Positions 4,124 to 54,134 of a DNA stretch of 60,152 nucleotides are shown here, piece by piece. This stretch comes from an uncultured Dehalococcoidales bacterium (GTDB lineage: Bacteria > Chloroflexota > Dehalococcoidia > GIF9 > AB-539-J10): contig CAZZAC010000002.1 of the NCBI GenBank assembly GCA_964652095.1, forward strand, positions 1-60,152, given 5' to 3'. The position numbers were made by a program, and so were the translations under genes. Each line of letters opens with the position of its first letter. The stretch's first letter is position 1. The notes beneath the pieces are model-generated. The model had not been told where the DNA came from. It worked only from the letters and a program-made list of their open reading frames with translations, and searched no databases.

Positions 4124-5335
4124 TTATTTTCCTTGCGACATTGTATTCCCTGAGAGGCTTATGCGAATTTTCCTTGGTTCGCCGTTGGTAGCAGCTTCGT
4201 CGGTTGTGACTTCTTCAATATGAGCCACTGCGGGGATTGTTTGCAGCACATCAACAAGGTTCATGGACTCACGCAGGAAAACCAGAATTGAAGGAGTATC
4301 AATCTGAGGTACAATCATCTCAGTATTTGCAACTTCGGGTAATTGGTCAAGGAAGGACACGACTTCCATGATTTTGGCTATATCAAACGGAGGTAAGATT
4401 TCCACTTCCCATTGCGGCTTGCCCAACTCTGGCTGGTCTTCAATCTCAAGTAATTTCGAGAGTTCGGAACTCTTTTCAATGTAGTCAGCAGCCTGGCTTG
4501 GCTCCGGGTGTTCGACAGGTGCCTTGCTCTCTTCCGTGACTATGGTGTCTCTTCCCTCTGTGATTTCCGCGGCTGAGGCGTCTTTCCCTTCCGCAACTGT
4601 GGTGTCTCTTCCCTCTGTGATTTCCGCGGCTGAGGCGTCTTTCCCTTCCGCAACTGTGGTGTCTCTTCCCTCTGTGATTTCCGCGGCTGAGGCGTCTTTC
4701 CCTTCCATGACTATGGTGTCTCTCTCTTCCGCGATTTTTGCAGCTATGGCGTCGCTCTCTTTCACGATTTCCATGGCTGCGGCGCTGTTCTCCTCCCTGG
4801 GTTTAGCCAACTTATTGTCAAAATCTGCCTGTACCGCTGCTGCCTGCTTCTTAAGGCTCTCCAGTTCTTCCAGCATATAGCCGAATTGTTGATTTACAAG
4901 GTTGCGTATTTCCCCCCTGATTTTATTTTTCTGGTTCTCTAGCAGCAGTGTTGCTTCCTCTTCAGCTTTGGCCTTGATTGCATTAGCCTTTTCATTAGCA
5001 ATCTCCACAGCTTCAGCTATTTTCTTTTCCGACATCTGGCGAGCTTGCTCTTTGGCTTTATCTATAATGGCAGCACTCTCAGCTTTAGCTTGTTCTGCGG
5101 CTTCTGTTTTGATCTGCGCGGCCAGCTTGTCGGCTTCGACAATGTTCCTCTCCGCAAGTCTGTTAAGAGACTCGATATGATCCTGGGACTTGGCCAGTTT
5201 ATCCCGCTCCTTGATAAGCTCGTCAATGAAAGACGCTACCTGAGCCTCATCTAGCCCGTTTTTTACTCGCTTGAACTCACGCTCTCCCAGCACAATGACA
5301 TCATCTTTAGCAGTATTACCCATAATATTCACCAT
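4124..5335 (-). CDS. DivIVA-domain coiled-coil protein with 19-aa tandem repeats
   Basis: The N-terminal FKRVKNGLDEAQVASFIDEL fits the DivIVA motif. A long Ala/Glu/Lys coiled coil follows, then three copies of VAEGKDASAAEITEGRDTT. RBS GAAAGG lies upstream of ATG 5335. Confidence 0.6.
   Translation of the reverse strand: MVNIMGNTAKDDVIVLGEREFKRVKNGLDEAQVASFIDELIKERDKLAKSQDHIESLNRLAERNIVEADKLAAQIKTEAAEQAKAESAAIIDKAKEQARQMSEKKIAEAVEIANEKANAIKAKAEEEATLLLENQKNKIRGEIRNLVNQQFGYMLEELESLKKQAAAVQADFDNKLAKPREENSAAAMEIVKESDAIAAKIAEERDTIVMEGKDASAAEITEGRDTTVAEGKDASAAEITEGRDTTVAEGKDASAAEITEGRDTIVTEESKAPVEHPEPSQAADYIEKSSELSKLLEIEDQPELGKPQWEVEILPPFDIAKIMEVVSFLDQLPEVANTEMIVPQIDTPSILVFLRESMNLVDVLQTIPAVAHIEEVTTDEAATNGEPRKIRISLSGNTMSQGK
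4543..4713. repeat. 57-bp tandem repeat, about 3 copies plus a degenerate fourth, inside the DivIVA-like CDS
   Basis: The unit tggtgtctcttccctctgtgatttccgcggctgaggcgtctttcccttccgcaactg repeats head to tail at 4543, 4600 and 4657. The 57-nt period keeps the reading frame. Confidence 0.9.
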
Positions 5336-6491: not shown

Positions 6492-7766
6492 TTACGCACC
6501 GGGATTCATAACGTGCCCGACAAAAAGAATGGCACCCGTTTCAATGTCGCGAATCAGGAAGATGAAGGGGTGGTCTATGGTGACTTCCACTGGCTGGCCT
6601 GGTATTGCGGTTTCTCCCACGATCACCGCCGTGGCCGCTGCCGCCTCTGTGCCTGCCTCATCTACCGAGACAAAAGCCTTGTGCAGCACTTCACTTATGC
6701 ATAGGTCCGGTGTACCCGTCATCCCGGAGAAATCCGCGCTGCCGGAAAAGGCAATCGGCATGCCCATCTCGGCGAGGGTATCCTTCAGGCTGAATTCTGA
6801 GTCAAATTCAAACCGGGGCATTGTCAGGGTGACCTGAGCGGGTTGCAGGCTGCTTATGATGTCACAGACCTGCTGGGCCTGGAGGCCTTCTTCAGAAGCC
6901 TGAAACTGGCCAGCTTCAGGTAAAAGGATGACCATGGAAAGTTCATTGCCATCGTATTGCAGCTCAACTGCCTGGTATCCTTCCCCCTCGGTGTAGCCGA
7001 AGGCCTCCGTCTGCTTCATCATCGGCACGCTGACCTGCCCGCCGTCAAGAAGGTAGAACGGGCCGTCTGCTGTCATGTCCTCATCGAAAGGGTACTCCCA
7101 GGCAGCATTGAAGTAGATAGCATTAGTCAGCACAAGGCGGGTCAGCGAAGTAATCACACCCTCCGGGATAAGGTCCTTAATGCGTTCTTCAGTCTGGTCA
7201 CTGACCCAATCGTTGATGGTAAGGCGGGACTTTTCCGTCTCATTCATGAAGTCCAGTATTCTCAGTCCGGCCCCGTAGTTCTCGGCCAGGACATCGAGGA
7301 AGGTGGGAAGGAAGCCGTAATCCTTTTGCCCCCAGATGGCGTTAACGATGTTCAGCCTGAACCCTTCGTCATCCTTGCCCTGGGCGCCTTCACCCCTGCT
7401 GGCAAGTTCTACATCGAGCCAGTTGAATGCCGGGTGCAGCCTCTCCTGTTCAAGAAGGAATTGAAGGGTAGCGGCCATCTGCTGAGCAGTTTCGCCGCGC
7501 GCTCCGGCGTATGTCATAGCCAGCGCCACTGAGATGCTGTGAGGAGAATAGAATAGATTACCTTCCTCCCCTTTAAGCGCCTGATAAAGCTCAAAGGCAA
7601 AGGCGCTGTTTCCTTCAACCAGTAATGCTTGCTCACTCGGATTGACATCCGGTGAAGTTATCCGCTCCTTATCTGATATGAGCAACTCGCCTCCTGCTGC
7701 CTGGTCACAGGCTATCAACGGCAGTACCAATAATACGATTAATGCTGATATCAATGCCTTCTTCAT
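6492..7766 (-). CDS. Serpin (serine protease inhibitor), lipoprotein-type signal, paralogue 1
   Basis: Serpin hinge/RCL EAGTEAAAATAV and C-terminal DHPFIFLIRD. The N-terminal signal carries the lipobox-like LPLIAC. ATG 7766 sits 9 nt after GGAGG. The GTG at 7775 lies within the RBS. Confidence 0.85.
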   Translation of the reverse strand: MKKALISALIVLLVLPLIACDQAAGGELLISDKERITSPDVNPSEQALLVEGNSAFAFELYQALKGEEGNLFYSPHSISVALAMTYAGARGETAQQMAATLQFLLEQERLHPAFNWLDVELASRGEGAQGKDDEGFRLNIVNAIWGQKDYGFLPTFLDVLAENYGAGLRILDFMNETEKSRLTINDWVSDQTEERIKDLIPEGVITSLTRLVLTNAIYFNAAWEYPFDEDMTADGPFYLLDGGQVSVPMMKQTEAFGYTEGEGYQAVELQYDGNELSMVILLPEAGQFQASEEGLQAQQVCDIISSLQPAQVTLTMPRFEFDSEFSLKDTLAEMGMPIAFSGSADFSGMTGTPDLCISEVLHKAFVSVDEAGTEAAAATAVIVGETAIPGQPVEVTIDHPFIFLIRDIETGAILFVGHVMNPGA

Positions 7767-7857
7767 CTCATGCACCTCCTATAAATATTCAGATTCGGAA
7801 CCATTTCACCTCCAGATTTAACAATCCAAACTTCCGTGTAATACACGTGGCATTTAC

Positions 7858-9141
7858 TTATGCACCGGGATTCAGGACACGCCCGACAAAGAGAATAGCA
7901 CCCGTATCAATGTCGCGAATCAAGAAGATGAAGGGGTGGTCTATGGTGAATTCCACAGGAGGTTCAGGTACTGCTGTTAGTTTCATAATCACTGCGGTGG
8001 CAGCAGCAGCCTCGGTGCCATCTTCATCCACGGCAACGAATGCCTTGTGCAGAACGTCTGATATGAACAGCTCAGGATTACCAGTCATTCCGGAGAAATC
8101 CGCACTGCTAGAAAAGGCAATCGGCATGCCCATCCCGGCGAGGGTGTCCTTCAGGCTGAATTCCGAGTCAAATTCAAACTGGGGCATCGTCAGGGTGACA
8201 TGAGTAGGTTGCAGACTGCTTATAATGGCATCAACCTGCTGAGCCTGAAGCCCTTCTTCAAAGACCTGGAAGTTACCAGCTTCGGGCAGGAGGATAACCA
8301 TGGAAAGTTCATTGCCATCGTATTGCAGCTCAACTGCCTGGTATCCTTCCCCCTCGGTGTAGCCGAAGGCCTCCGTCTGCTTCATCATCGGCACGCTGAC
8401 CTGCCCGCCGTCAAGAAGGTAGAACGGGCCATCTGCTGTAATGTTCCCATTGAAAGGGTATTCCCAGGCAGCATTGAAGTAGATAGCATTGGTGAGCACA
8501 AGGCGGGTCAGTGCATCAAACAAGCCTTGCGAGATAAGGTCTTCAATGCGACCTTCCGTCTGGTCACTGACCCAATCATTGATGGTGACGCGGGACTTTT
8601 CCGTCTCCGTTATGAAGTCCAGTATTCTCAGCCCGGCACCATAGTTTTCGGCCAGGACATCGAGAAAGGCAGGAAGGAAGCTGTAGTCCTTTTGCCCCCA
8701 GATGGCGTTAACGATGTTCAGCCTGAATCCCTCACCGTCCTTACCTTCAGCACCTTCATCCCTGCTGGCAAGCTCTGCATCGAGCCAGTTAAATGCCGGG
8801 TGTAGCCTCTCCTGTTCAAGAATGAAGTTAAGGGTATCGGCCATCTGCTGAGCAGTTTCGCCACGCGCTCCAGAGTATGTCATCGCCAGCGCCAGGGAGA
8901 TACTATAGGGAGAGTAGAAAACATTACCCTCATTCTTCTCTTTAAGCACCTGATAAAGCTGGAAGGCGAAAGCGCTGTTTCCCTCAACCAGCAATGCTTG
9001 GTCACTCGTACTGACATCTGGTGAAGTTATCCGCCCTTGATCTGATTTGAGCACCTCGCCTGCTGCTGGTTGAGCCATTTGAATAGAGGCTACCGCCAGC
9101 AGCAACACTATGACTAATACGGTTATCAATCTCTTATTCAT
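7858..9141 (-). CDS. Serpin, secreted, paralogue 2
   Basis: Same family as 6492-7766 (EDGTEAAAATAV, DHPFIFLIRD) with an N-terminal hydrophobic signal. ATG 9141 follows TAGGAGGTG. Confidence 0.85.
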   Translation of the reverse strand: MNKRLITVLVIVLLLAVASIQMAQPAAGEVLKSDQGRITSPDVSTSDQALLVEGNSAFAFQLYQVLKEKNEGNVFYSPYSISLALAMTYSGARGETAQQMADTLNFILEQERLHPAFNWLDAELASRDEGAEGKDGEGFRLNIVNAIWGQKDYSFLPAFLDVLAENYGAGLRILDFITETEKSRVTINDWVSDQTEGRIEDLISQGLFDALTRLVLTNAIYFNAAWEYPFNGNITADGPFYLLDGGQVSVPMMKQTEAFGYTEGEGYQAVELQYDGNELSMVILLPEAGNFQVFEEGLQAQQVDAIISSLQPTHVTLTMPQFEFDSEFSLKDTLAGMGMPIAFSSSADFSGMTGNPELFISDVLHKAFVAVDEDGTEAAAATAVIMKLTAVPEPPVEFTIDHPFIFLIRDIDTGAILFVGRVLNPGA

Positions 9142-9264
9142 CTCGTTCACCTCCTATAAATATTTAGACTCTTTATTTTGCCCTTCAGTTCAAATTTGGC
9201 CATTTTATAAGCCTTTCATTTCGAGATAGGAGATTCCTCAGACGGTCCTTCGCTGCCACGGGGC

Positions 9265-42255: not shown

Positions 42256-42319
42256 AGTATTCTGGGGACATAATGCCTGATTTGGAGCAGGCCTAATTGG
42301 TATGGTGTTCCTGGAATTC
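42256..42319 (+). repeat. 64-nt hairpin repeat (family 1), copy C
   Basis: agtattctggggacataatgcctgatttggagcaggcctaattggtatggtgttcctggaattc. It lies 14 nt from the methyltransferase stop. Confidence 0.9.
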
Positions 42320-42332
42320 GCGGTAAACACGC

Positions 42333-43026: not shown

Positions 43027-43090
43027 CATATTCCGGGGACATAATACCTAATTTGCAGTAGGCCTAATTGGCATGGCGCCCCTAGAATTC
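43027..43090 (+). repeat. 64-nt hairpin repeat (family 1), copy D (most diverged)
   Basis: catattccggggacataatacctaatttgcagtaggcctaattggcatggcgcccctagaattc. It fills the 71-nt gap between the Vms1-like gene stop and the methyltransferase start. Confidence 0.85.
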
Positions 43091-43093
43091 CCG

Positions 43094-43858
43094 CTAAGAG
43101 TTATCCGCGCACCATTCGATAACATCGGTTGACCAGACAGTGCCCACGGCTTTTTCCAGTACCGCCTGGCGTGGCTCCCGTATATCCAGCAGCGTCCGCA
43201 GGATGCGGTCGTCAAATTGGCTCAGGAACGGGCACCGTTTGCGCAGTGAGAGGATGGTAGTCCTTGCTCCGCCATAGACCAGATAGTCGAGTGACCGGGC
43301 ATGGGGCTCGATATTCTCCCGCACGTGACCGCAAACCCGGCCCAGAAACTGCTCTATTTGCTTTTCCCGGTGTCGGGCAAACCGCGCCTGCGAGGAGCCA
43401 CCCTTTTTGTGGCGGGCGTGCACCAGGCCTGTTCCCGTCTTGCTATCTATGAACTCTGTGCCCCGGCAGATGCCAATACTGTATGCTCCCAGGCGGACCA
43501 GAACCAGAGCGATAAGGAAGTCGTGACTGATAAGAGAACACAACGGTCCAACATCATAGCCGTCGGTGATATATTCTTCGGCAATCGGGAATGGTGGCAG
43601 GACCAGATACGTTTGCAGCGGGCTCCAGAAAAACGCCGCTCCCATTCTCGAGCCGGCAATAGCCTCAGCCACGCCTGGCGGTATGGCAGTTGCGGCAAAC
43701 ACCTTTCCCAGCAGATTTTCCACTCTGGCTTGAGGCATCCCCCGTGGGAGATATAACGACATCGCCTTGCCTTCAGTCGAAGCCAGCTCGTCCAGAAAGC
43801 TGAGCGCCTTCGACCTGCCGAGACGGAATCTCTTCGATACAAACATAATATCAATCAC
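43094..43858 (-). CDS. Vms1/ANKZF1-like peptidyl-tRNA hydrolase (acVLRF1-type eRF1-fold release factor)
   Basis: The motif HARHKKGGSSQARFARHRE (GGSSQ encoded at 43388-43402) matches the GxxQ catalytic loop of the VLRF1 family. The length is about 250 aa. The gene lies 22 nt downstream of mutS2. Confidence 0.7.
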   Translation of the reverse strand: MIDIMFVSKRFRLGRSKALSFLDELASTEGKAMSLYLPRGMPQARVENLLGKVFAATAIPPGVAEAIAGSRMGAAFFWSPLQTYLVLPPFPIAEEYITDGYDVGPLCSLISHDFLIALVLVRLGAYSIGICRGTEFIDSKTGTGLVHARHKKGGSSQARFARHREKQIEQFLGRVCGHVRENIEPHARSLDYLVYGGARTTILSLRKRCPFLSQFDDRILRTLLDIREPRQAVLEKAVGTVWSTDVIEWCADNS

Positions 43859-43880
43859 CCGGCCGAATGAAATACTCTGG

Positions 43881-46268
43881 CTACATGCTGACTATGGTAA
43901 CGCCGTCACCACCCTCGCCCTGCTCCCCGGGCTGGAAAGACGTGACCAGCGGGTGAGAGGCCAGAATCTCCCTGACAATCTGACGCACGGTGCCCGTGCC
44001 GATACCGTGAATGATGCGGACCCGGCTCAAGCCGCATAAAGACGCTTCGTTAAGGTAGCCTTCCAGCGCCGGCTCGACCTCCTCAGCCCTCTTTCCCCGC
44101 AGGTCAAGCTCGAGAGAGACCCTGGACTTGCGCATCTCACTCCTTATCAGGGCGCTGCCCGTCTTCACCACGCCAGTTGATGGTATCCTCTTTTCCACGC
44201 TGTCCAGCCTGAGGGTCATCTTCACTTTCCCGGCATAGACTTCGACGAGCCCGCGTTCCTCAGACACTGATAGTACCGTAGCCGACACGCCAGCCTCTTT
44301 CAGCCAGACGGTATCACCGGCGGTGATTGGGCCTGTCCCGACTTCTGTTTCGTCTATCCCAACCGCCGGTCTGGCTTGCCATACCCCAGTATCTAACTGT
44401 TCCTGTGCCTCGGCTAGTGCCTTTTTCGCCTGCTCGATTCTTCCCCGCGATTTTTCCTTGCGCAATTCCGCTGCTGCCTCGCGAATTTTCATCTGTAATT
44501 CGGCAGCCTCGCAACCTATCCGGTCACGGGTCTCCTTGACGATTCTTCGTTTGTCCTCCTCCAACTGGCGGAGCCTGTTTCTCAAGTCCGCGTCGCTCTG
44601 TTCTGCCTCATTCAGTTCCTTCTCCAGGCTGTGGCGAAGCGACTCAACATTCTTCTGCTCGGTCACCAGATGGGTAAGCAAAGATTCAATCTCCTGGGCG
44701 CCTTGGGAAAGCATGTGCCGGGCGCGGGCCACAATCTCCGCAGGCAGTCCCAGACGAGATGCTGTAGCCAGAGCATTGCTGCCGCCCGGGATACCCACTG
44801 TCAGGTGATAGGTGGGCGCCATCGTAACGGGGTCCACATCCAGAGCCGCGTTTTCCACGCCGTCGGTAGCGTGAGCCAGTGCCTTTAATTCGGTGTAGTG
44901 AGTGGTGGCTACGGTCATCGTTCCCTGTGGTAAGAAATGGAGCAGGATAGCGCGGCCGAGAGCCGAGCCTTCGCCCGGGTCAGTGTTGGTGCCCAGTTCG
45001 TCTAACAGCACCAGGCTCTGTGCCGTGGCGTTGTTGATGATGCGCACGATGTTGCCTATGTGCCAGCTGAAGGTAGAAAGGGTCTGCTCGATGCTCTGCT
45101 CATCACCGATGTCGGCATATACGCCGTCATAAACGGGGATGCGGCTTTCCGCCTGAGCCGGAATGGGCAAGCCAGCCTGCGCCATCAGGCTGAGAAGTCC
45201 TATCGTCTTGAGGGCGACCGTCTTGCCACCGGTATTGGGCCCGGTGATGACCAGGACGGAGAAGTTCCGGCCAATCTCGACCGACAGCGGCACTGCCTTC
45301 TTTTTCAGCAGCGGATGTCTGGCTTCGACCAGCCTGAGCACTCCGGCCGGTTCATGTCCCTCTGACTTAGCATTTCTACCAGCGGCCACGATAATAGGCT
45401 CGGTGGCTTTGGCTTCTCTGGCGTATCTGGCCTTAGCCAGCGCCAGGTCAATCTCAGCAATCAGCTCAATGTCACGGGAAATTTCGCTTTCGAATGCTCC
45501 GACTTCAGCACTGAGCATTCTCAGTATCCTTTCTATTTCGTCCTTCTCTTCGGCACCCAGCTCGCGCAGTTCATTCTGCACGTCTGTAGTGGTCCATGGC
45601 TCAATAAATACCGTAGCCTCGGTATTGGAGACGTCGTGGACAATGCCCTTTATCTGCCGGCGACATTCCACCTTGACGGGAATTACATACCGGCCTTCCC
45701 GCTCGGTCACAATGGGATCCTGGATTATTTTCCGCCATCTGGGTGAGGTGATTATGGCTTGCAGGTGAGTGAGCAATTCCTGGCGCACTTCTCGCATTCT
45801 ATGCCTCACCGACGCCAGTTTATGTGAGGCGGTATCCAAAAGGTCGCCGGTCGGACTCAAGCAGCCATCAATATCCTTTTGAAGCTGGGCCAGTGTCACA
45901 ATGTCATTGGCCAGACCACTGAGTAACGGGAGTTCACCCGGCATGTTCACCAGGTGGCTTCTTAGCCTGTGGGCAGCGCCCAGCGTCTTTTGAATTTCCA
46001 ACAAAGATTGAGGGTCCAGGATTTTGCCGCGTGTCGCCATCTTCACCACTTCCCGGATATCAACAACTTCGCCGATATGGGTATCTGGACTGAGTGACAG
46101 CAAACGGCGTGCCTCAGCCGACTGCCTGAGCCGCAGGCGGACTTCTTCTTCATCCGAGAGAGGAGTGAGGTCGAGGGCCAGCTCTCGGCTGGCGGAAAAT
46201 GAAGTGAAGCCGGCTAGTATCTCCCTCATCTTGTGAAATTCCAGCAGTTCTAAATCGCTGTCGCCCAA
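43881..46268 (-). CDS. mutS2: MutS2 (endonuclease/ATPase with C-terminal Smr domain)
   Basis: 795 aa, with the MutS ATPase Walker A GPNTGGKT, a long coiled coil and a C-terminal Smr domain (LDLRGKRAEE...RIIHGIGTGTVR). Confidence 0.9.
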   Translation of the reverse strand: MGDSDLELLEFHKMREILAGFTSFSASRELALDLTPLSDEEEVRLRLRQSAEARRLLSLSPDTHIGEVVDIREVVKMATRGKILDPQSLLEIQKTLGAAHRLRSHLVNMPGELPLLSGLANDIVTLAQLQKDIDGCLSPTGDLLDTASHKLASVRHRMREVRQELLTHLQAIITSPRWRKIIQDPIVTEREGRYVIPVKVECRRQIKGIVHDVSNTEATVFIEPWTTTDVQNELRELGAEEKDEIERILRMLSAEVGAFESEISRDIELIAEIDLALAKARYAREAKATEPIIVAAGRNAKSEGHEPAGVLRLVEARHPLLKKKAVPLSVEIGRNFSVLVITGPNTGGKTVALKTIGLLSLMAQAGLPIPAQAESRIPVYDGVYADIGDEQSIEQTLSTFSWHIGNIVRIINNATAQSLVLLDELGTNTDPGEGSALGRAILLHFLPQGTMTVATTHYTELKALAHATDGVENAALDVDPVTMAPTYHLTVGIPGGSNALATASRLGLPAEIVARARHMLSQGAQEIESLLTHLVTEQKNVESLRHSLEKELNEAEQSDADLRNRLRQLEEDKRRIVKETRDRIGCEAAELQMKIREAAAELRKEKSRGRIEQAKKALAEAQEQLDTGVWQARPAVGIDETEVGTGPITAGDTVWLKEAGVSATVLSVSEERGLVEVYAGKVKMTLRLDSVEKRIPSTGVVKTGSALIRSEMRKSRVSLELDLRGKRAEEVEPALEGYLNEASLCGLSRVRIIHGIGTGTVRQIVREILASHPLVTSFQPGEQGEGGDGVTIVSM

Positions 46269-46413
46269 GGTAACCTTCCCGAGTCGCCTATACTCTCATC
46301 GCCATATTAATAATCATCGAATAGTATAAAGCAATCACCCCAGTTTTCAAAAAATCGGCTTCTCCAGCCAGGGGCGGACGAGATTACTTACGTCGTTTTA
46401 AAGAGGGTTCCAA

Positions 46414-46477
46414 GGTATTCTGGGGACATAATGCCTGATTTATGATAGGCTTAATTGGTATGGTGTCACTGGAATTC
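46414..46477 (+). repeat. 64-nt hairpin repeat (family 1), copy E
   Basis: ggtattctggggacataatgcctgatttatgataggcttaattggtatggtgtcactggaattc. It sits in the divergent promoter region between mutS2 and the AMP-ligase gene. Confidence 0.9.
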
Positions 46478-46479
46478 CA

Positions 46480-46509
46480 TTGACAGGAAATAGGAAATTG
46501 GCTCATAAT
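46480..46509 (+). promoter_or_regulatory. Sigma-70-type promoter of the AMP-ligase gene
   Basis: TTGACA (46480-46485), an 18-nt spacer, then CATAAT (46504-46509). The ATG lies at 46548 after GGGAGAG. The -35 hexamer starts 3 nt after repeat E. Confidence 0.5.
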
Positions 46510-48089: not shown

Positions 48090-48153
48090 GGTGTTCTGGG
48101 GACATAATACCTGATTTGTAGTAGGCCTAATTGGTATGGTGTCCCTGGAATTC
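48090..48153 (+). repeat. 64-nt hairpin repeat (family 1), copy F
   Basis: ggtgttctggggacataatacctgatttgtagtaggcctaattggtatggtgtccctggaattc. Confidence 0.95.
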
Positions 48154-48346
48154 ACACTAGAGACAGGAAAATGCTACACTATAATAGAATAAAGCTGTAG
48201 GCGGGTGGTACTCGGAACTATCAAATGTCCCATAATTCCGCGAAAAATGCAGCAGTTTTGTGCACTTTGCCTAACCAGTGGCTGCTGTTGAAACCCGTGT
48301 TACGCCATTACTATTAATTGAATATAGACAATAAGGAGACACTGAT

Positions 48347-49728: not shown

Positions 49729-49798
49729 GGTATTCCGGGGACATAATACCTGATTTGTAGCAGGCCTAATTGGTATGGTGTCCCTGAAATTACCAATT
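49729..49798 (+). repeat. Hairpin repeat (family 1), copy G, variant 3' end (ccctgaaattaccaattc)
   Basis: ggtattccggggacataatacctgatttgtagcaggcctaattggtatggtgtccctgaaattaccaattc. It has the same variant 3' end as copy J. Confidence 0.9.
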
Positions 49799-49809
49799 CC
49801 GAAGACCCT

Positions 49810-49827
49810 GTACTAACGTCTTAGTAC
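49810..49827. promoter_or_regulatory. Perfect palindrome GTACTAA-cgtc-TTAGTAC upstream of the sRNA promoter (operator candidate)
   Basis: The 7-bp arms end 10 nt before the -35 hexamer. The site is identical in the second copy (53884-53901). Confidence 0.35.
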
Positions 49828-49837
49828 GTATGGGGAC

Positions 49838-49867
49838 TTGACAACTGGTCTATATATGTGCTAGTAT
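49838..49867 (+). promoter_or_regulatory. Sigma-70-type promoter with extended -10 (TTGACA-N18-TGcTAGTAT)
   Basis: TTGACA at 49838-49843, TG at 49859-49860 and TAGTAT at 49862-49867. The region is 100% identical in copy 2. Confidence 0.5.
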
Positions 49868-49873
49868 TAACAT

Positions 49874-50024
49874 TGTCCCGAGTAGCCGAGCAGGGACCTG
49901 GCATGAGAGTTGGGTTTGGTGAAAGCTGAAAGGTGCAGGTAGTGGCCAGCACAAGGTAAGCTGAAGGCCAGGCCGGACTATGGCAGGTGAAGAAAGTGAG
50001 GTTACTCGGGGCGTCTTATTTTTT
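49874..50024 (+). ncRNA. Candidate structured sRNA of about 150 nt, copy 1, family unknown
   Basis: It starts about 7 nt after the -10 hexamer. A 13-bp closing helix forms between GUCCCGAGUAGCC (49875-49887) and GGUUACUCGGGGC (50000-50012), followed by GUCUUAUUUUUU. There is no conserved ORF and no downstream + strand gene. Confidence 0.45.
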
Positions 50025-50060
50025 GCTGGCTAAGCGTCCTTGTCACAGTTTGAAATGACC

Positions 50061-51642: not shown

Positions 51643-51706
51643 GGTATTCTGGGGACATAATACCTGATTTGTAGTAGGCCTAATTGGTACGGTATCCCTG
51701 GAATTC
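51643..51706 (+). repeat. 64-nt hairpin repeat (family 1), copy I
   Basis: ggtattctggggacataatacctgatttgtagtaggcctaattggtacggtatccctggaattc. Its 3' 27 nt encode the last 8 codons and the stop of the 5'-nucleotidase ORF on the opposite strand. Confidence 0.95.
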
Positions 51707-53710
51707 TTTGTACTTTCTCCTACGGAGGAGCAGGAATACTATTCCCGCCGCAGTAACTGCCAGTATTAAGATAAGCCACCCTACCAGGGGGAAAGTCCAG
51801 GTTTTGTTGATGCGCCCGGCAACAGCTTCATAATAATCGGGTATCCGGGGTATTCCATCTACTCCCGGCAGCTGGGCCGCGGCGTAAATCACCACCGCCT
51901 CCCAAACTTTGAGCTCTTTTCCGTCGGCATTATGCACTATCAATTCGCCCAATCTTTCCAGCGGTACCGGCTCTCCATCGGCATTTTTAGGGACTATCTC
52001 CAGCTGGGGCAGCATGTCTGTCACCAAGGGGAGGAAGAGGAGGATGTAGGCGTCGGTAACCAGGTGGTACAACTTTTCATCTCCGCGCTTTAAGGGGACA
52101 TACCCTTCACCGTTTACAGGTTGAATCCCATCACCCGTGTAAAGCTCTGCTCTAGTAACCGCACGGGTCGTGGGAATAGGCAGGTTTACAAAAGGTATGG
52201 TCAAGAGCACTGCATTGGCGGGGTTGTAGCTGTACCGCAGGCCGGAGAACTGTAGAAAGAAAGAATCTCCCACAAACTCCTGCAGCAGTATGGTTACCTC
52301 CAGCAGACGGCGCACTTCTTCGCCGGTGAGATAGACAGACGCAATGGGACAACCTGCGTAGCCGTCGCGTCCGTGTCCCATGCCTGTAGCTTCGACAATC
52401 TCATAAAAGGAAACGTTTCCTGCAGAGTGTTCCATGGTGCCAGGAAAGATGCTTGTCCGGATGCAGCCGCTAGCCTGACATGCTACGTCGACCCTCTTGC
52501 CGATGACCTCCTGGGCAACCATGCGCATGGCGTCGGTAACGAAGTTGCCGAGCGGAGTTTCACTCAAGGGCAGCTGGTTGGACAGGATAAAGTCAGACCT
52601 GGCTACCGTACTCATGATATCGTCGAATTTGCCGCCGGTCATTTCATCGATGTACGCATTCAAGATGAGGGTATATTCCCGGACCAGGGCATCGATTTCC
52701 GGATGGCAGGCAAAGCTGTCGTCAATGGGAATAAGAAAGGGGCGGTCGTTTTCTTCGTTGCGCACCCGTACCTTGCCGGTGTTGGAGTTGTACGCCAGTT
52801 CAAGTTGCCCCAGGTACCTTCCCAGGGAACCAGCCTGGACAATGATGGTAGCGCCCTGTAAGACTGGCTTATATAGGGCGGTCTCACTGTGGCCGCCTAC
52901 GATTACGTCGATACCCGGGACCTCTCGTGCCAGTTCCCGGTCCTCATCCACGCCAGAGTGAGTTATGCCCACGATGACATTTGCACCCTGTTCTTTCAGC
53001 TCATCTACCGCCTGGCGGGCCGCCTCGTGCTGGTCCAGGAACTGCACGTCCCCGGTTTCACCGATTACCAGGATGGCGTCTTTACCTATAAGGCCGAAAA
53101 CTCCTACTTTCAGGCCGTTTTCCAGCTCAAACATCCCGGCCTTTCTGTAGAGACCCCGGGCAGCCAGCGGATGGGCTGGTGGCGCCTCCGTGTTGGAGGC
53201 CAGTACCAATGTTTTTTGGTGGGCTTCGGGGTATCCGGCCTGTAAAAGGTATTGCGCCAGGACGTCAGGGCCGTAATCGTACTCATGGTTGCCGATGACT
53301 ACGGCGTCATATCCCATCTCCTGCATTATGGTAAGCTCTGCGGCGTAACCACGGAGGGCCAGCCAAGCGAAAGCAGAGCCTCCCAGGAAATCACCGGCGT
53401 CAAAAAGAAGGACCGGCTCACCTTCCTTCATTTTGTTCTCTCGGATTTCGTCCACGGCGGTAGCCAGACGAGCGAACCCTCCTATAGCAGGGTCTTCTTT
53501 TTCGGGGTCGTAGTCTACTGCCGGCGAATGGGGTATCAGCGCGGACTGCATATCGTTGGTATGGAGTATACAGAAATACAGCTCTTCGGTTTCACCTGCG
53601 TAACTTTTCAAATTTCCCGGAATGCCCAGGAATGAGGCGACTACCAGGATGGTTATCAGAATACAGAACAACCCTTTGTTTGCCCTGAAAAGGCTGTTTC
53701 TGTTACACAT
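51680..53710 (-). CDS. Bifunctional metallophosphatase / 5'-nucleotidase with C-terminal membrane anchor
   Basis: Calcineurin-like motifs (HTNDMQS, GDFLGGS, GNHEYD, GGHSE), a 5'-nucleotidase C-terminal domain, a signal peptide and a C-terminal TM helix are present. The tail EFQGYRTN* is encoded by repeat I. Confidence 0.8.
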   Translation of the reverse strand: MCNRNSLFRANKGLFCILITILVVASFLGIPGNLKSYAGETEELYFCILHTNDMQSALIPHSPAVDYDPEKEDPAIGGFARLATAVDEIRENKMKEGEPVLLFDAGDFLGGSAFAWLALRGYAAELTIMQEMGYDAVVIGNHEYDYGPDVLAQYLLQAGYPEAHQKTLVLASNTEAPPAHPLAARGLYRKAGMFELENGLKVGVFGLIGKDAILVIGETGDVQFLDQHEAARQAVDELKEQGANVIVGITHSGVDEDRELAREVPGIDVIVGGHSETALYKPVLQGATIIVQAGSLGRYLGQLELAYNSNTGKVRVRNEENDRPFLIPIDDSFACHPEIDALVREYTLILNAYIDEMTGGKFDDIMSTVARSDFILSNQLPLSETPLGNFVTDAMRMVAQEVIGKRVDVACQASGCIRTSIFPGTMEHSAGNVSFYEIVEATGMGHGRDGYAGCPIASVYLTGEEVRRLLEVTILLQEFVGDSFFLQFSGLRYSYNPANAVLLTIPFVNLPIPTTRAVTRAELYTGDGIQPVNGEGYVPLKRGDEKLYHLVTDAYILLFLPLVTDMLPQLEIVPKNADGEPVPLERLGELIVHNADGKELKVWEAVVIYAAAQLPGVDGIPRIPDYYEAVAGRINKTWTFPLVGWLILILAVTAAGIVFLLLRRRKYKEFQGYRTN

Positions 53711-53803: not shown

Positions 53804-53873
53804 GGTATTCTGGGACATAATACCTGATTTGTAGTAGGCCTGATTGGTATGGTGTCCCTGAAATTACCAATTC
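53804..53873 (+). repeat. Hairpin repeat (family 1), copy J, variant 3' end
   Basis: ggtattctgggacataatacctgatttgtagtaggcctgattggtatggtgtccctgaaattaccaattc, with a 1-nt deletion in the 5' arm. Confidence 0.9.
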
Positions 53874-53883
53874 CGAAGACCCT

Positions 53884-53901
53884 GTACTAACGTCTTAGTA
53901 C
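53884..53901. promoter_or_regulatory. Palindrome GTACTAA-cgtc-TTAGTAC (operator candidate), copy 2
   Basis: Identical to 49810-49827. Confidence 0.35.
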
Positions 53902-53911
53902 GTATGGGGAC

Positions 53912-53941
53912 TTGACAACTGGTCTATATATGTGCTAGTAT
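53912..53941 (+). promoter_or_regulatory. Promoter with extended -10, copy 2
   Basis: Identical to 49838-49867. Confidence 0.5.
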
Positions 53942-53947
53942 TAACAT

Positions 53948-54098
53948 TGTCCCGAGTAGCCGAGCAGGAACCTGGCATAAGAGTTGGGTTTGGTGGAAGC
54001 TTAAAGGTGCAGGTAGTGGCCAGCACAAGGTAAGCTGAGGGCCAGGCCGGACGATAGCAGGTGAAGTAAGTGAGGTTACTCGGGGCGTCTGATTTTTT
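53948..54098 (+). ncRNA. Candidate structured sRNA, copy 2
   Basis: It differs from copy 1 by 9 substitutions, all outside the three helices I propose. The closing helix and U-tract are the same. Confidence 0.45.
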
Positions 54099-54134
54099 GC
54101 TGGCTAAGCATCCCTGTCGCAGCTTGAAATGACC

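Follow-up and report, generated by a model that had tools for sequence, protein, structure and literature searches.

In the ribosome quality control (RQC) pathway of Bacillus subtilis, MutS2 (RqcU) splits the stalled ribosomes, RqcH and RqcP carry out alanine tailing and Pth performs the release. In eukaryotes, release on the large subunit is codon-independent and is carried out by Vms1/ANKZF1 after splitting factors have acted. Prokaryotic proteins of the Vms1 type have, to our knowledge, no known function. Here we analyse a 60,152-nt stretch of DNA (the window) from an uncultured Dehalococcoidales bacterium (contig CAZZAC010000002.1 of assembly GCA_964652095.1), in which mutS2 is followed on the same strand by a gene for such a protein, the Vms1/ANKZF1-like release factor acVLRF1. 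We identify both proteins and demonstrate a conserved linkage between their genes that does not depend on orientation. We hold with moderate confidence that the pair constitutes a two-gene rescue unit for stalled ribosomes, in which MutS2 would split the ribosome and acVLRF1 would free the nascent chain on the 50S subunit.

The tie of MutS2 to ribosome rescue is more recent than the original description of the acVLRF-1 family. In that description, prokaryotic VLRF-1 proteins are standalone and unconnected to other RQC components, the family Gln is treated as catalytic and a role in the rescue of stalled ribosomes is suggested (Burroughs and Aravind 2019, PMC6514570). The protein studied here belongs to the same family (PF18859). 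It departs from the published picture in that two large clades are tightly linked to mutS2 and in that the Gln is variable.

Similarities and differences can be observed relative to the systems named above. Like Vms1/ANKZF1 (eVLRF-1), acVLRF1 contains the RNase-H-like M domain of the aeRF1 superfamily, with a loop of small residues followed by a basic helix, and it is not expected to read stop codons. In both cases a splitting factor would act first and codon-independent release on the large subunit would come next. Unlike the eukaryotic protein, acVLRF1 has only 250 residues with a reduced, aRF1-like N-terminal region, and lacks the Rei1 zinc finger, the ankyrin repeats, the VIM and the link to Cdc48. 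Its partner is a MutS-family ATPase encoded next to it, in place of the eukaryotic splitting factors. As in B. subtilis, a full-length MutS2 orthologue with ATPase, KOW/MSSS-like and Smr parts is present. The conserved partner of mutS2 is here acVLRF1, whereas we know of no pairing of the Bacillus gene with a release-factor-like gene.

The mutS2-acVLRF1 pair is conserved

The conservation of the pair was assessed in a scan of one genome per GTDB species, with an alignment of 16 sequences as seed. The best 80 of 284 relatives were kept, all from Dehalococcoidia or Chloroflexota metagenome-assembled genomes (MAGs) and 50-91% identical to the window protein. Their loci were searched by tblastn with the window proteins, and 76 loci, those that hold 150 nt or more of sequence ahead of acVLRF1, could be assessed. 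MutS2 lies upstream on the same strand in 72 of these 76 Dehalococcoidia species loci, with a median gap of 34 nt over the 72. It ends no more than 250 nt upstream and is directly adjacent in 69 of the 76, while three further loci carry an inserted gene between the two, encoding an IS200/RAYT-like transposase (L076, L080) or a 106-aa open reading frame (ORF; L051). MutS2 is missing upstream in four loci (L054, L061, L071, L082). All-against-all clustering of 721 ORFs revealed MutS2 and acVLRF1 as the only widely shared families. The next commonest neighbour, a methyltransferase, is found in 13 of the 80 loci, all from close relatives.

More distant homologues were sampled by individual protein look-ups and by a metagenome scan seeded with a distant clade. 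A tree of 126 acVLRF1 sequences resolves three groups. Within the clade of the window protein, followed down to about 40% identity, 17 additional metagenome loci all have MutS2 followed by acVLRF1. A second clade, 28-33% identical to the window protein, has the opposite order, with acVLRF1 followed by MutS2 in 9 of 10 loci; the tenth ends before the downstream region. Unrelated genes stand between the pair in three of these nine loci (a restriction-modification (R-M) system, HicB and a small ORF), and no family occurs in the flanks of more than three of the nine. The third group comprises the remaining clades, in which at least 10 sampled loci show no MutS2 in the vicinity.

The two genes thus remain neighbours on the same strand across distant genomes while their flanks change, as is characteristic of a conserved operon. 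The link is strong, old, independent of gene order and specific to clades of the family. The earlier note, which had proposed the coupling from this single genome, is borne out on adjacency elsewhere, in the species loci as well as in the more divergent and the reversed-order sets. The link holds for the window and reversed-order clades but does not extend to the whole family, since other acVLRF1 clades are unlinked.

The two proteins and the GGSSQ loop

The ORF at 43094-43858, which contains the acVLRF1 gene, carries HARHKKGGSSQARFARHRE. The protein matches Pfam PF18859 at 104.2 bits (cut-off 27.1, E = 8e-30) over profile positions 3-129 of 130, and the same match is found in all 120 closest homologues. 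Close relatives, from Dehalococcoidia and Chloroflexota MAGs, are named 'Vms1/Ankzf1 family peptidyl-tRNA hydrolase' by NCBI. Membership of the VLRF1 family, the failure of which had been named beforehand as a possible refutation, is therefore supported far above the threshold. The suggested resemblance to the acVLRF1 clade also stands, as the protein falls into the acVLRF-1 branch and not into bVLRF-1 or eVLRF-1.

An AlphaFold2 model, built on an alignment of 46 diverse homologues, has a predicted local distance difference test score (pLDDT) of 95.8 and a predicted template modelling score (pTM) of 0.90. It consists of an N-terminal region of about 100 residues and an RNase-H-like core. Foldseek searches against the PDB with this model return archaeal aRF1 (4af1, 1.5e-11), eRF1, Balon and Pelota/Dom34, as well as yeast Vms1 on the 60S subunit (6r84_R, 5e-5, TM score 0.42 over 192 columns), with aRF1 and eRF1 ranking above Vms1. 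Matches confined to the M domain have root-mean-square deviations of 3.5 over 126 columns (8hku_ARF1) and 3.0 over 135 columns (4crm_X). The model therefore has the fold of the aeRF1 superfamily, with structural similarity to the M domain of eRF1 and aRF1.

A sequence profile of the family and aRF1 can be aligned between about residue 7 and residue 237 (E = 2.9e-22). In this alignment the N-terminal 100 residues correspond to a shortened aRF1 N domain in which the NIKS stop-codon segment is skipped, and neither the alignment nor the AlphaFold2 model offers a counterpart of the Pelota-type C domain. Such a reduced aRF1-like N region without a Pelota domain is consistent with a codon-blind factor and agrees with the original description of the family, in which no stop-codon-binding domain and no Pelota C domain are reported (Burroughs and Aravind 2019, PMC6514570). 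The so-called 'distinctive N-terminal extension', encoded at 43546-43846, lines up with the beginning of the aRF1 N domain minus its NIKS-containing segment. From this alignment, the N-terminal region of about 100 residues may be a reduced remnant of the stop-codon domain and not a new element. Pfam searches of acVLRF1 gave no match to a Rei1 zinc finger, ankyrin repeats or VIM, for which 250 residues leave no room. No fusion of MutS2 to acVLRF1 occurs among the listed homologues, all of which have at most 306 residues.

MutS2 exceeds the equivalog cut-off of TIGR01069 (mutS2) twofold, at 800.1 bits against 400. In a Pfam scan, MutS_V and Smr are above their cut-offs, MSSS is just below and MutS_I, the mismatch domain I, gives no match. 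Residues 6-794 align (E = 3.4e-148) with residues 6-783 of the B. subtilis MutS2 that is bound to the ribosome in 7qv3. All complete MutS2 genes adjacent to acVLRF1 retain Walker A, Walker B, DLRG and HGxGxG. The B. subtilis protein senses collided ribosomes and splits them. On the basis of this orthology, with which the 7qv3 match is consistent, we infer that the window MutS2 binds and splits collided ribosomes.

The loop of acVLRF1 has the sequence G149-G150-S151-S152-Q153 and leads into a helix with conserved arginines (RFARHREKQ), in agreement with a GGxSQ pattern. It differs from the GxuQ of eVLRF-1 and bVLRF-1 (PMC6514570), and the motif of the family has been read as GGxSQ with a longer loop (Burroughs and Aravind 2019, PMC6514570). 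Residues were counted over the 126 acVLRF1 loci and, separately, over 130 representative clusters at 50% identity. R145, H146, G149, G150, S152, R155, F156, R158 and R160 are invariant or nearly so over the 126 loci. Residue 153 is Gln in 96 of these loci, Ala in 26, Ser in 3 and Glu in 1; among the clusters the counts are 86 for Gln, 29 for Ala and 15 for Ser. MutS2 is still adjacent to Gln-less acVLRF1 in 10 loci of the genome set and in the subclade with the loop GGSSANRF. Identity within this subclade is 93.5% for the loop region and 74% for the whole protein, indicating that the loop is under selection without the Gln.

Gene starts, neighbouring genes and other features of the window

The pair occupies the first two of three consecutive minus-strand ORFs, of 795, 254 (from a GTG) and 229 aa, and the positions and common strand given for mutS2 and acVLRF1 by the earlier note agree with the ORF list and the profile matches. 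The length of 254 aa and the gap of 22 nt given there have to be revised. Both rely on the GTG at 43858, while in an alignment of upstream DNA from 46 relatives the conserved features are the ATG at 43846 and a purine-rich patch ahead of it, not the GTG. As homologues are also mostly 250 aa long, the gene most likely starts at this ATG, encodes 250 residues and follows the mutS2 stop codon after a 34-nt spacer (Table 1). A consensus scan found no promoter-like or terminator-like site on the minus strand between the two genes, and a candidate promoter precedes the mutS2 start by about 55 nt. A S-adenosylmethionine (SAM) methyltransferase gene was said to come next on the same strand, separated by a repeat only, and a copy of the repeat D1 indeed occupies that position.

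Table 1. Coordinates of the mutS2-acVLRF1 locus in the window.
Feature	Position	Strand	Details
Candidate sigma-70-like promoter	46321..46350	-	TTGAAA, 16-nt spacer, TATACT; consensus match only
mutS2 (rqcU-type), 795 aa	43881..46268	-	MutS ATPase core, without mismatch-binding domain I
MutS domain V ATPase, residues 339-521	44706..45254	-	Pfam MutS_V, alignment to 7qv3
Walker A of MutS2	45219-45242	-	GPNTGGKT
Walker B of MutS2, from residue 423		-	DELG
MSSS (KOW/SH3-like) domain of MutS2, residues 650-690	44199..44321	-	PF20297, 24.9 bits, cut-off 26.8
Smr nuclease domain of MutS2, residues 721-794	43887..44108	-	PF01713, 78.5 bits; DLRG, HGIGTG
Intergenic spacer mutS2-acVLRF1, 34 nt	43847..43880	-	Shine-Dalgarno-like GGGTGA 9-14 nt before the ATG, purine-rich
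acVLRF1 gene (Vms1/ANKZF1-like release factor), 250 aa	43094..43846	-	PF18859, AlphaFold2, Foldseek and aRF1 profile match
GGSSQ loop codons, G149-Q153	43388..43402	-	Start of long basic helix (RFARHREKQ)
D1 intergenic palindromic repeat copy, 73 nt	43028..43100	.	Overlaps acVLRF1 stop codon, before methyltransferase gene
Class I SAM methyltransferase, 229 aa	42333-43022	-	Downstream of acVLRF1, past D1 repeat copy

Several candidates for further components were considered and rejected. The methyltransferase, conceivable as a PrmC-like Gln methylase, is a generic Methyltransf_11/25 protein that scores 40.9 bits against PrmC (cut-off 199), and it is not a conserved partner, as it lies downstream only in the 13 of 80 loci from close relatives. 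The gene that separates the pair in L076 and L080, and lies upstream of acVLRF1 in L071, resembles an IS200/RAYT-type transposase in its motifs. MutS2 and acVLRF1 have no PADLOC match that would indicate an anti-phage defence system. The window contains no Rfam family, tRNA or tmRNA.

The transposase-like gene encodes 187-189 residues (L076:1723-2292, L080:5428-5991, L071:650-1216), contains the motifs HxH and NYYEHVIRNE, and has no copy in the window. It might mobilise D1-type repeats. Mobile or defence genes also stand beside acVLRF1 or between it and its partner in L083 (5939-7431), L093 (6070-6282) and L088 (4080-4962), where the pair is kept; these inserts comprise an R-M system (N6_N4_Mtase and a BglII-like endonuclease), a HicB antitoxin and TIR-domain genes. 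In other acVLRF1 clades, the same-strand gene that immediately precedes acVLRF1, at a distance of 3-58 nt, encodes an alpha/beta hydrolase of about 660 residues (PF20091, Abhydrolase_10; L084:2952-4943, L085:3019-4995, L088:1930-3927, L090:3003-4997), and a Peptidase_S51 gene is often nearby. These loci have other neighbours in common, so that conserved synteny and functional linkage are indistinguishable there.

The D1 family comprises 12 copies between 36712 and 60099, all in one orientation. They are imperfect palindromes of about 50-73 nt with the core GGGGACATAATACCTGATTTGTAGTAGGCCTAATTGGTATGGTGTCCC, and D1 looks like an element of the repetitive extragenic palindrome (REP) or miniature inverted-repeat transposable element (MITE) type. 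Copies include 42257-42329, 43028-43100, 46415-46487, 48091-48163 and 51644-51716. The second and third of these bracket the pair, the latter upstream of mutS2, and none lies between the two genes. Of 82 related Dehalococcoidia loci, 28 contain D1-like copies. A function as a structured terminator was rejected, as shuffled sequence reaches a fold energy at least as good (z = 0). A 300-nt duplication of 96% identity (49738-50037 and 53812-54111, 4 kb apart) starts at a D1 repeat in each copy.

The window has a match in a JGI metagenome contig. Elsewhere in it, two tandem serpin genes lie on the minus strand (6492-7775 and 7858-9150, 427 and 430 aa), each with about 400 bits to PF00079. The DNA flanking them is duplicated (repeat families D4-D6), and they adjoin a beta-propeller protein and an ECF-type sigma factor. 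Four overlapping copies of 114 nt, with a period of 57 nt, make up a tandem array (4471-4755) inside a minus-strand ORF (4124-5335, 403 aa) that has no Pfam match. At the window edge, an ORF of 473 aa (349-1770) matches IstB_IS21-like and DnaA-like AAA ATPases and may be part of a mobile element.

A putative rescue unit and its alternatives

In the mechanism that we favour, a MutS2 dimer would recognise collided ribosomes and split the leading one with ATP, by homology to the B. subtilis protein. Splitting would leave peptidyl-tRNA stuck in the 50S subunit. Then acVLRF1, a release-factor-like protein that appears to have lost the stop-codon-reading elements and the Pelota-type C-terminal domain, would bind the exposed intersubunit face of the 50S, as Vms1 does on the 60S. 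Its invariant basic loop (GGxS..RF.R.R) would enter the peptidyl-transferase centre, and the nascent chain would be detached from the tRNA, either by hydrolysis of the ester bond or by cutting of the tRNA 3' end. We infer the order in which the two proteins act, the 50S subunit as substrate and the release chemistry. A release role is suggested for acVLRF1 because it is a codon-blind, release-factor-like partner, and because the loop that in related proteins extends to the peptidyl-transferase centre is its best-conserved part. While release in B. subtilis is attributed to Pth, in this lineage a Vms1-like factor would take its place.

A number of observations weigh against this proposal. The match to the NCBIfam model NF041024 (acVLRF1_NCBI) is a near miss, at 121.6 bits just below the cut-off of 125. 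Several acVLRF1 clades have no MutS2 nearby (L084-L090, L094-L097, L102, L106, L110, L114, L115), so that MutS2 is not a general requirement of the family. Co-transcription is suggested by spacing and consensus scans only. No rqcH, rqcP or pth was found within the 60-kb window, the part of the genome covered here.

The 'GxxQ loop' of the earlier note is present as GGSSQ, but roughly one third of the family, MutS2-linked members among them, has Ala or Ser in place of the Gln on which that label rests: Q153 is replaced in 44 of the 130 clusters and throughout the MutS2-linked GGSSANRF subclade. In addition, aRF1 GGQS aligns with GGSS in an ungapped hidden Markov model alignment, which places Ser151 at the position of the canonical GGQ Gln and the family Gln153 two residues past it. 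The canonical class I arrangement, with Gln right after Gly-Gly, is absent from the window protein, and Gln is found at position 151 in only 8 of 126 loci. No Gln is present at either candidate position in 42 of the 130 clusters. Because Q153 is variable and the canonical position is a Ser, textbook Gln-dependent hydrolysis is not assured for these sequences.

The variable Gln bears on two alternatives that are modelled on Pelota/eRF1 and ABCE1. This system is alike in pairing an aeRF1-superfamily protein with a ribosome-splitting ATPase, and Pelota is among the structural matches. It differs in that acVLRF1 has neither a Pelota C-terminal domain nor a GTPase partner, and in that the ATPase is MutS2 and not ABCE1. 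It is possible, if rather unlikely, that MutS2 and acVLRF1 form one physical machine as its bacterial counterpart, with acVLRF1 docked on the MutS2 clamp or delivered by it. The invariant loop would then free the nascent chain without the classic Gln, possibly by cleavage of the tRNA 3' end, an activity that has been proposed for ANKZF1. The tight mutS2 linkage of Gln-less variants (GGSSA, GGSSS) would follow because such chemistry needs no classic Gln. We find it improbable that acVLRF1 is instead a non-catalytic A-site adaptor that marks or props open the stalled ribosome for splitting by the MutS2 ATPase, as Pelota/eRF1 would for ABCE1, and leaves release to Pth or another enzyme. Such a role would suit the structural matches, which include Pelota/Dom34 and the non-catalytic hibernation factor Balon, the membership of MutS-family ATPases in the ABC ATPase superfamily, and the loss of Gln153 from roughly one third of the family, with 26 MutS2-linked loci among those affected, along with the Gln-less clusters. 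Yet the loop (GG.S..RF.R.R together with R145 and H146) is invariant over the 126 loci and, in the Gln-less subclade, more conserved than the rest of the protein, which would be unexpected if it were idle. Pelota and Balon have no such conserved loop, Gln-to-Ala substitutions in bacterial release factors keep much of the hydrolytic activity, and many acVLRF1 clades exist without MutS2. The conservation of a loop predicted to be directed to the peptidyl-transferase centre argues for catalysis over a pure adaptor role.

Other alternatives concern the substrate and the meaning of the linkage. The Smr domain of MutS2 could cut the mRNA between collided ribosomes, whereupon upstream ribosomes would run to the new 3' end and acVLRF1, having no codon-reading domain, would release the peptide from the non-stop 70S ribosome in the manner of ArfB. 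Every complete linked MutS2 gene retains DLRG and HGxGxG, acVLRF1 has no NIKS-type codon-recognition segment, and the conserved linkage is equally compatible with this scheme. The computed results do not directly separate it from the favoured one. ArfB is likewise a codon-independent, release-factor-like protein for stalled ribosomes, the role proposed for acVLRF1. The two folds are unrelated, however, one bacterial and the other archaeo-eukaryotic; ArfB is standalone, whereas acVLRF1 of the MutS2-linked clades is genetically coupled to a collision sensor; and the acVLRF1 model has no C-terminal tail to enter an empty mRNA channel. Since eukaryotic Vms1 binds the 60S and not the 80S, and since B. 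subtilis MutS2 was later reported to split ribosomes without cleaving mRNA, we regard release on a non-stop 70S as distinctly unlikely. A functionally meaningless adjacency, either as inherited gene order within one class or with MutS2 acting on DNA in recombination control beside an unrelated acVLRF1 neighbour, would agree with the restriction of the window gene order to Dehalococcoidia or related Chloroflexota, with the unlinked clades, and with the published view of prokaryotic VLRF-1 as standalone (Burroughs and Aravind 2019, PMC6514570). Against it, the pair stays together between 91% and about 40% identity as all of the flanking genes turn over, it survives insertions of a RAYT-like transposase, an R-M system and HicB, and it recurs in the opposite order in a clade of about 30% identity whose flanks are common to no more than three of nine loci. 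Given the two gene orders, the turnover of the flanks and the tolerated insertions, we assign this explanation little probability.

Both protein families are known and annotated. Our comparison with published work rests on the description of 2019, and the association may well have been noted elsewhere since. The pairing in about 100 related genomes, in two gene orders, suggests a bacterial way to free unfinished proteins from stalled ribosomes. For prokaryotic Vms1-like proteins it provides a concrete cellular place, which would be release after collision-triggered splitting. The two proteins make a small system suited to biochemistry and cryo-EM, and the natural Gln-less variants constitute a ready-made experiment on the disputed chemistry of Vms1/ANKZF1, hydrolase or tRNA nuclease. 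If MutS2 and acVLRF1 act as a single machine, the lineage would have a simple RQC without alanine tailing. If splitting by MutS2 is followed by release through acVLRF1, as we propose, the pathway would parallel eukaryotic RQC and differ from the Pth-based release of Bacillus. The logic of splitting followed by Vms1-type release would then be present in bacteria, which would bear on how the eukaryotic pathway was assembled.

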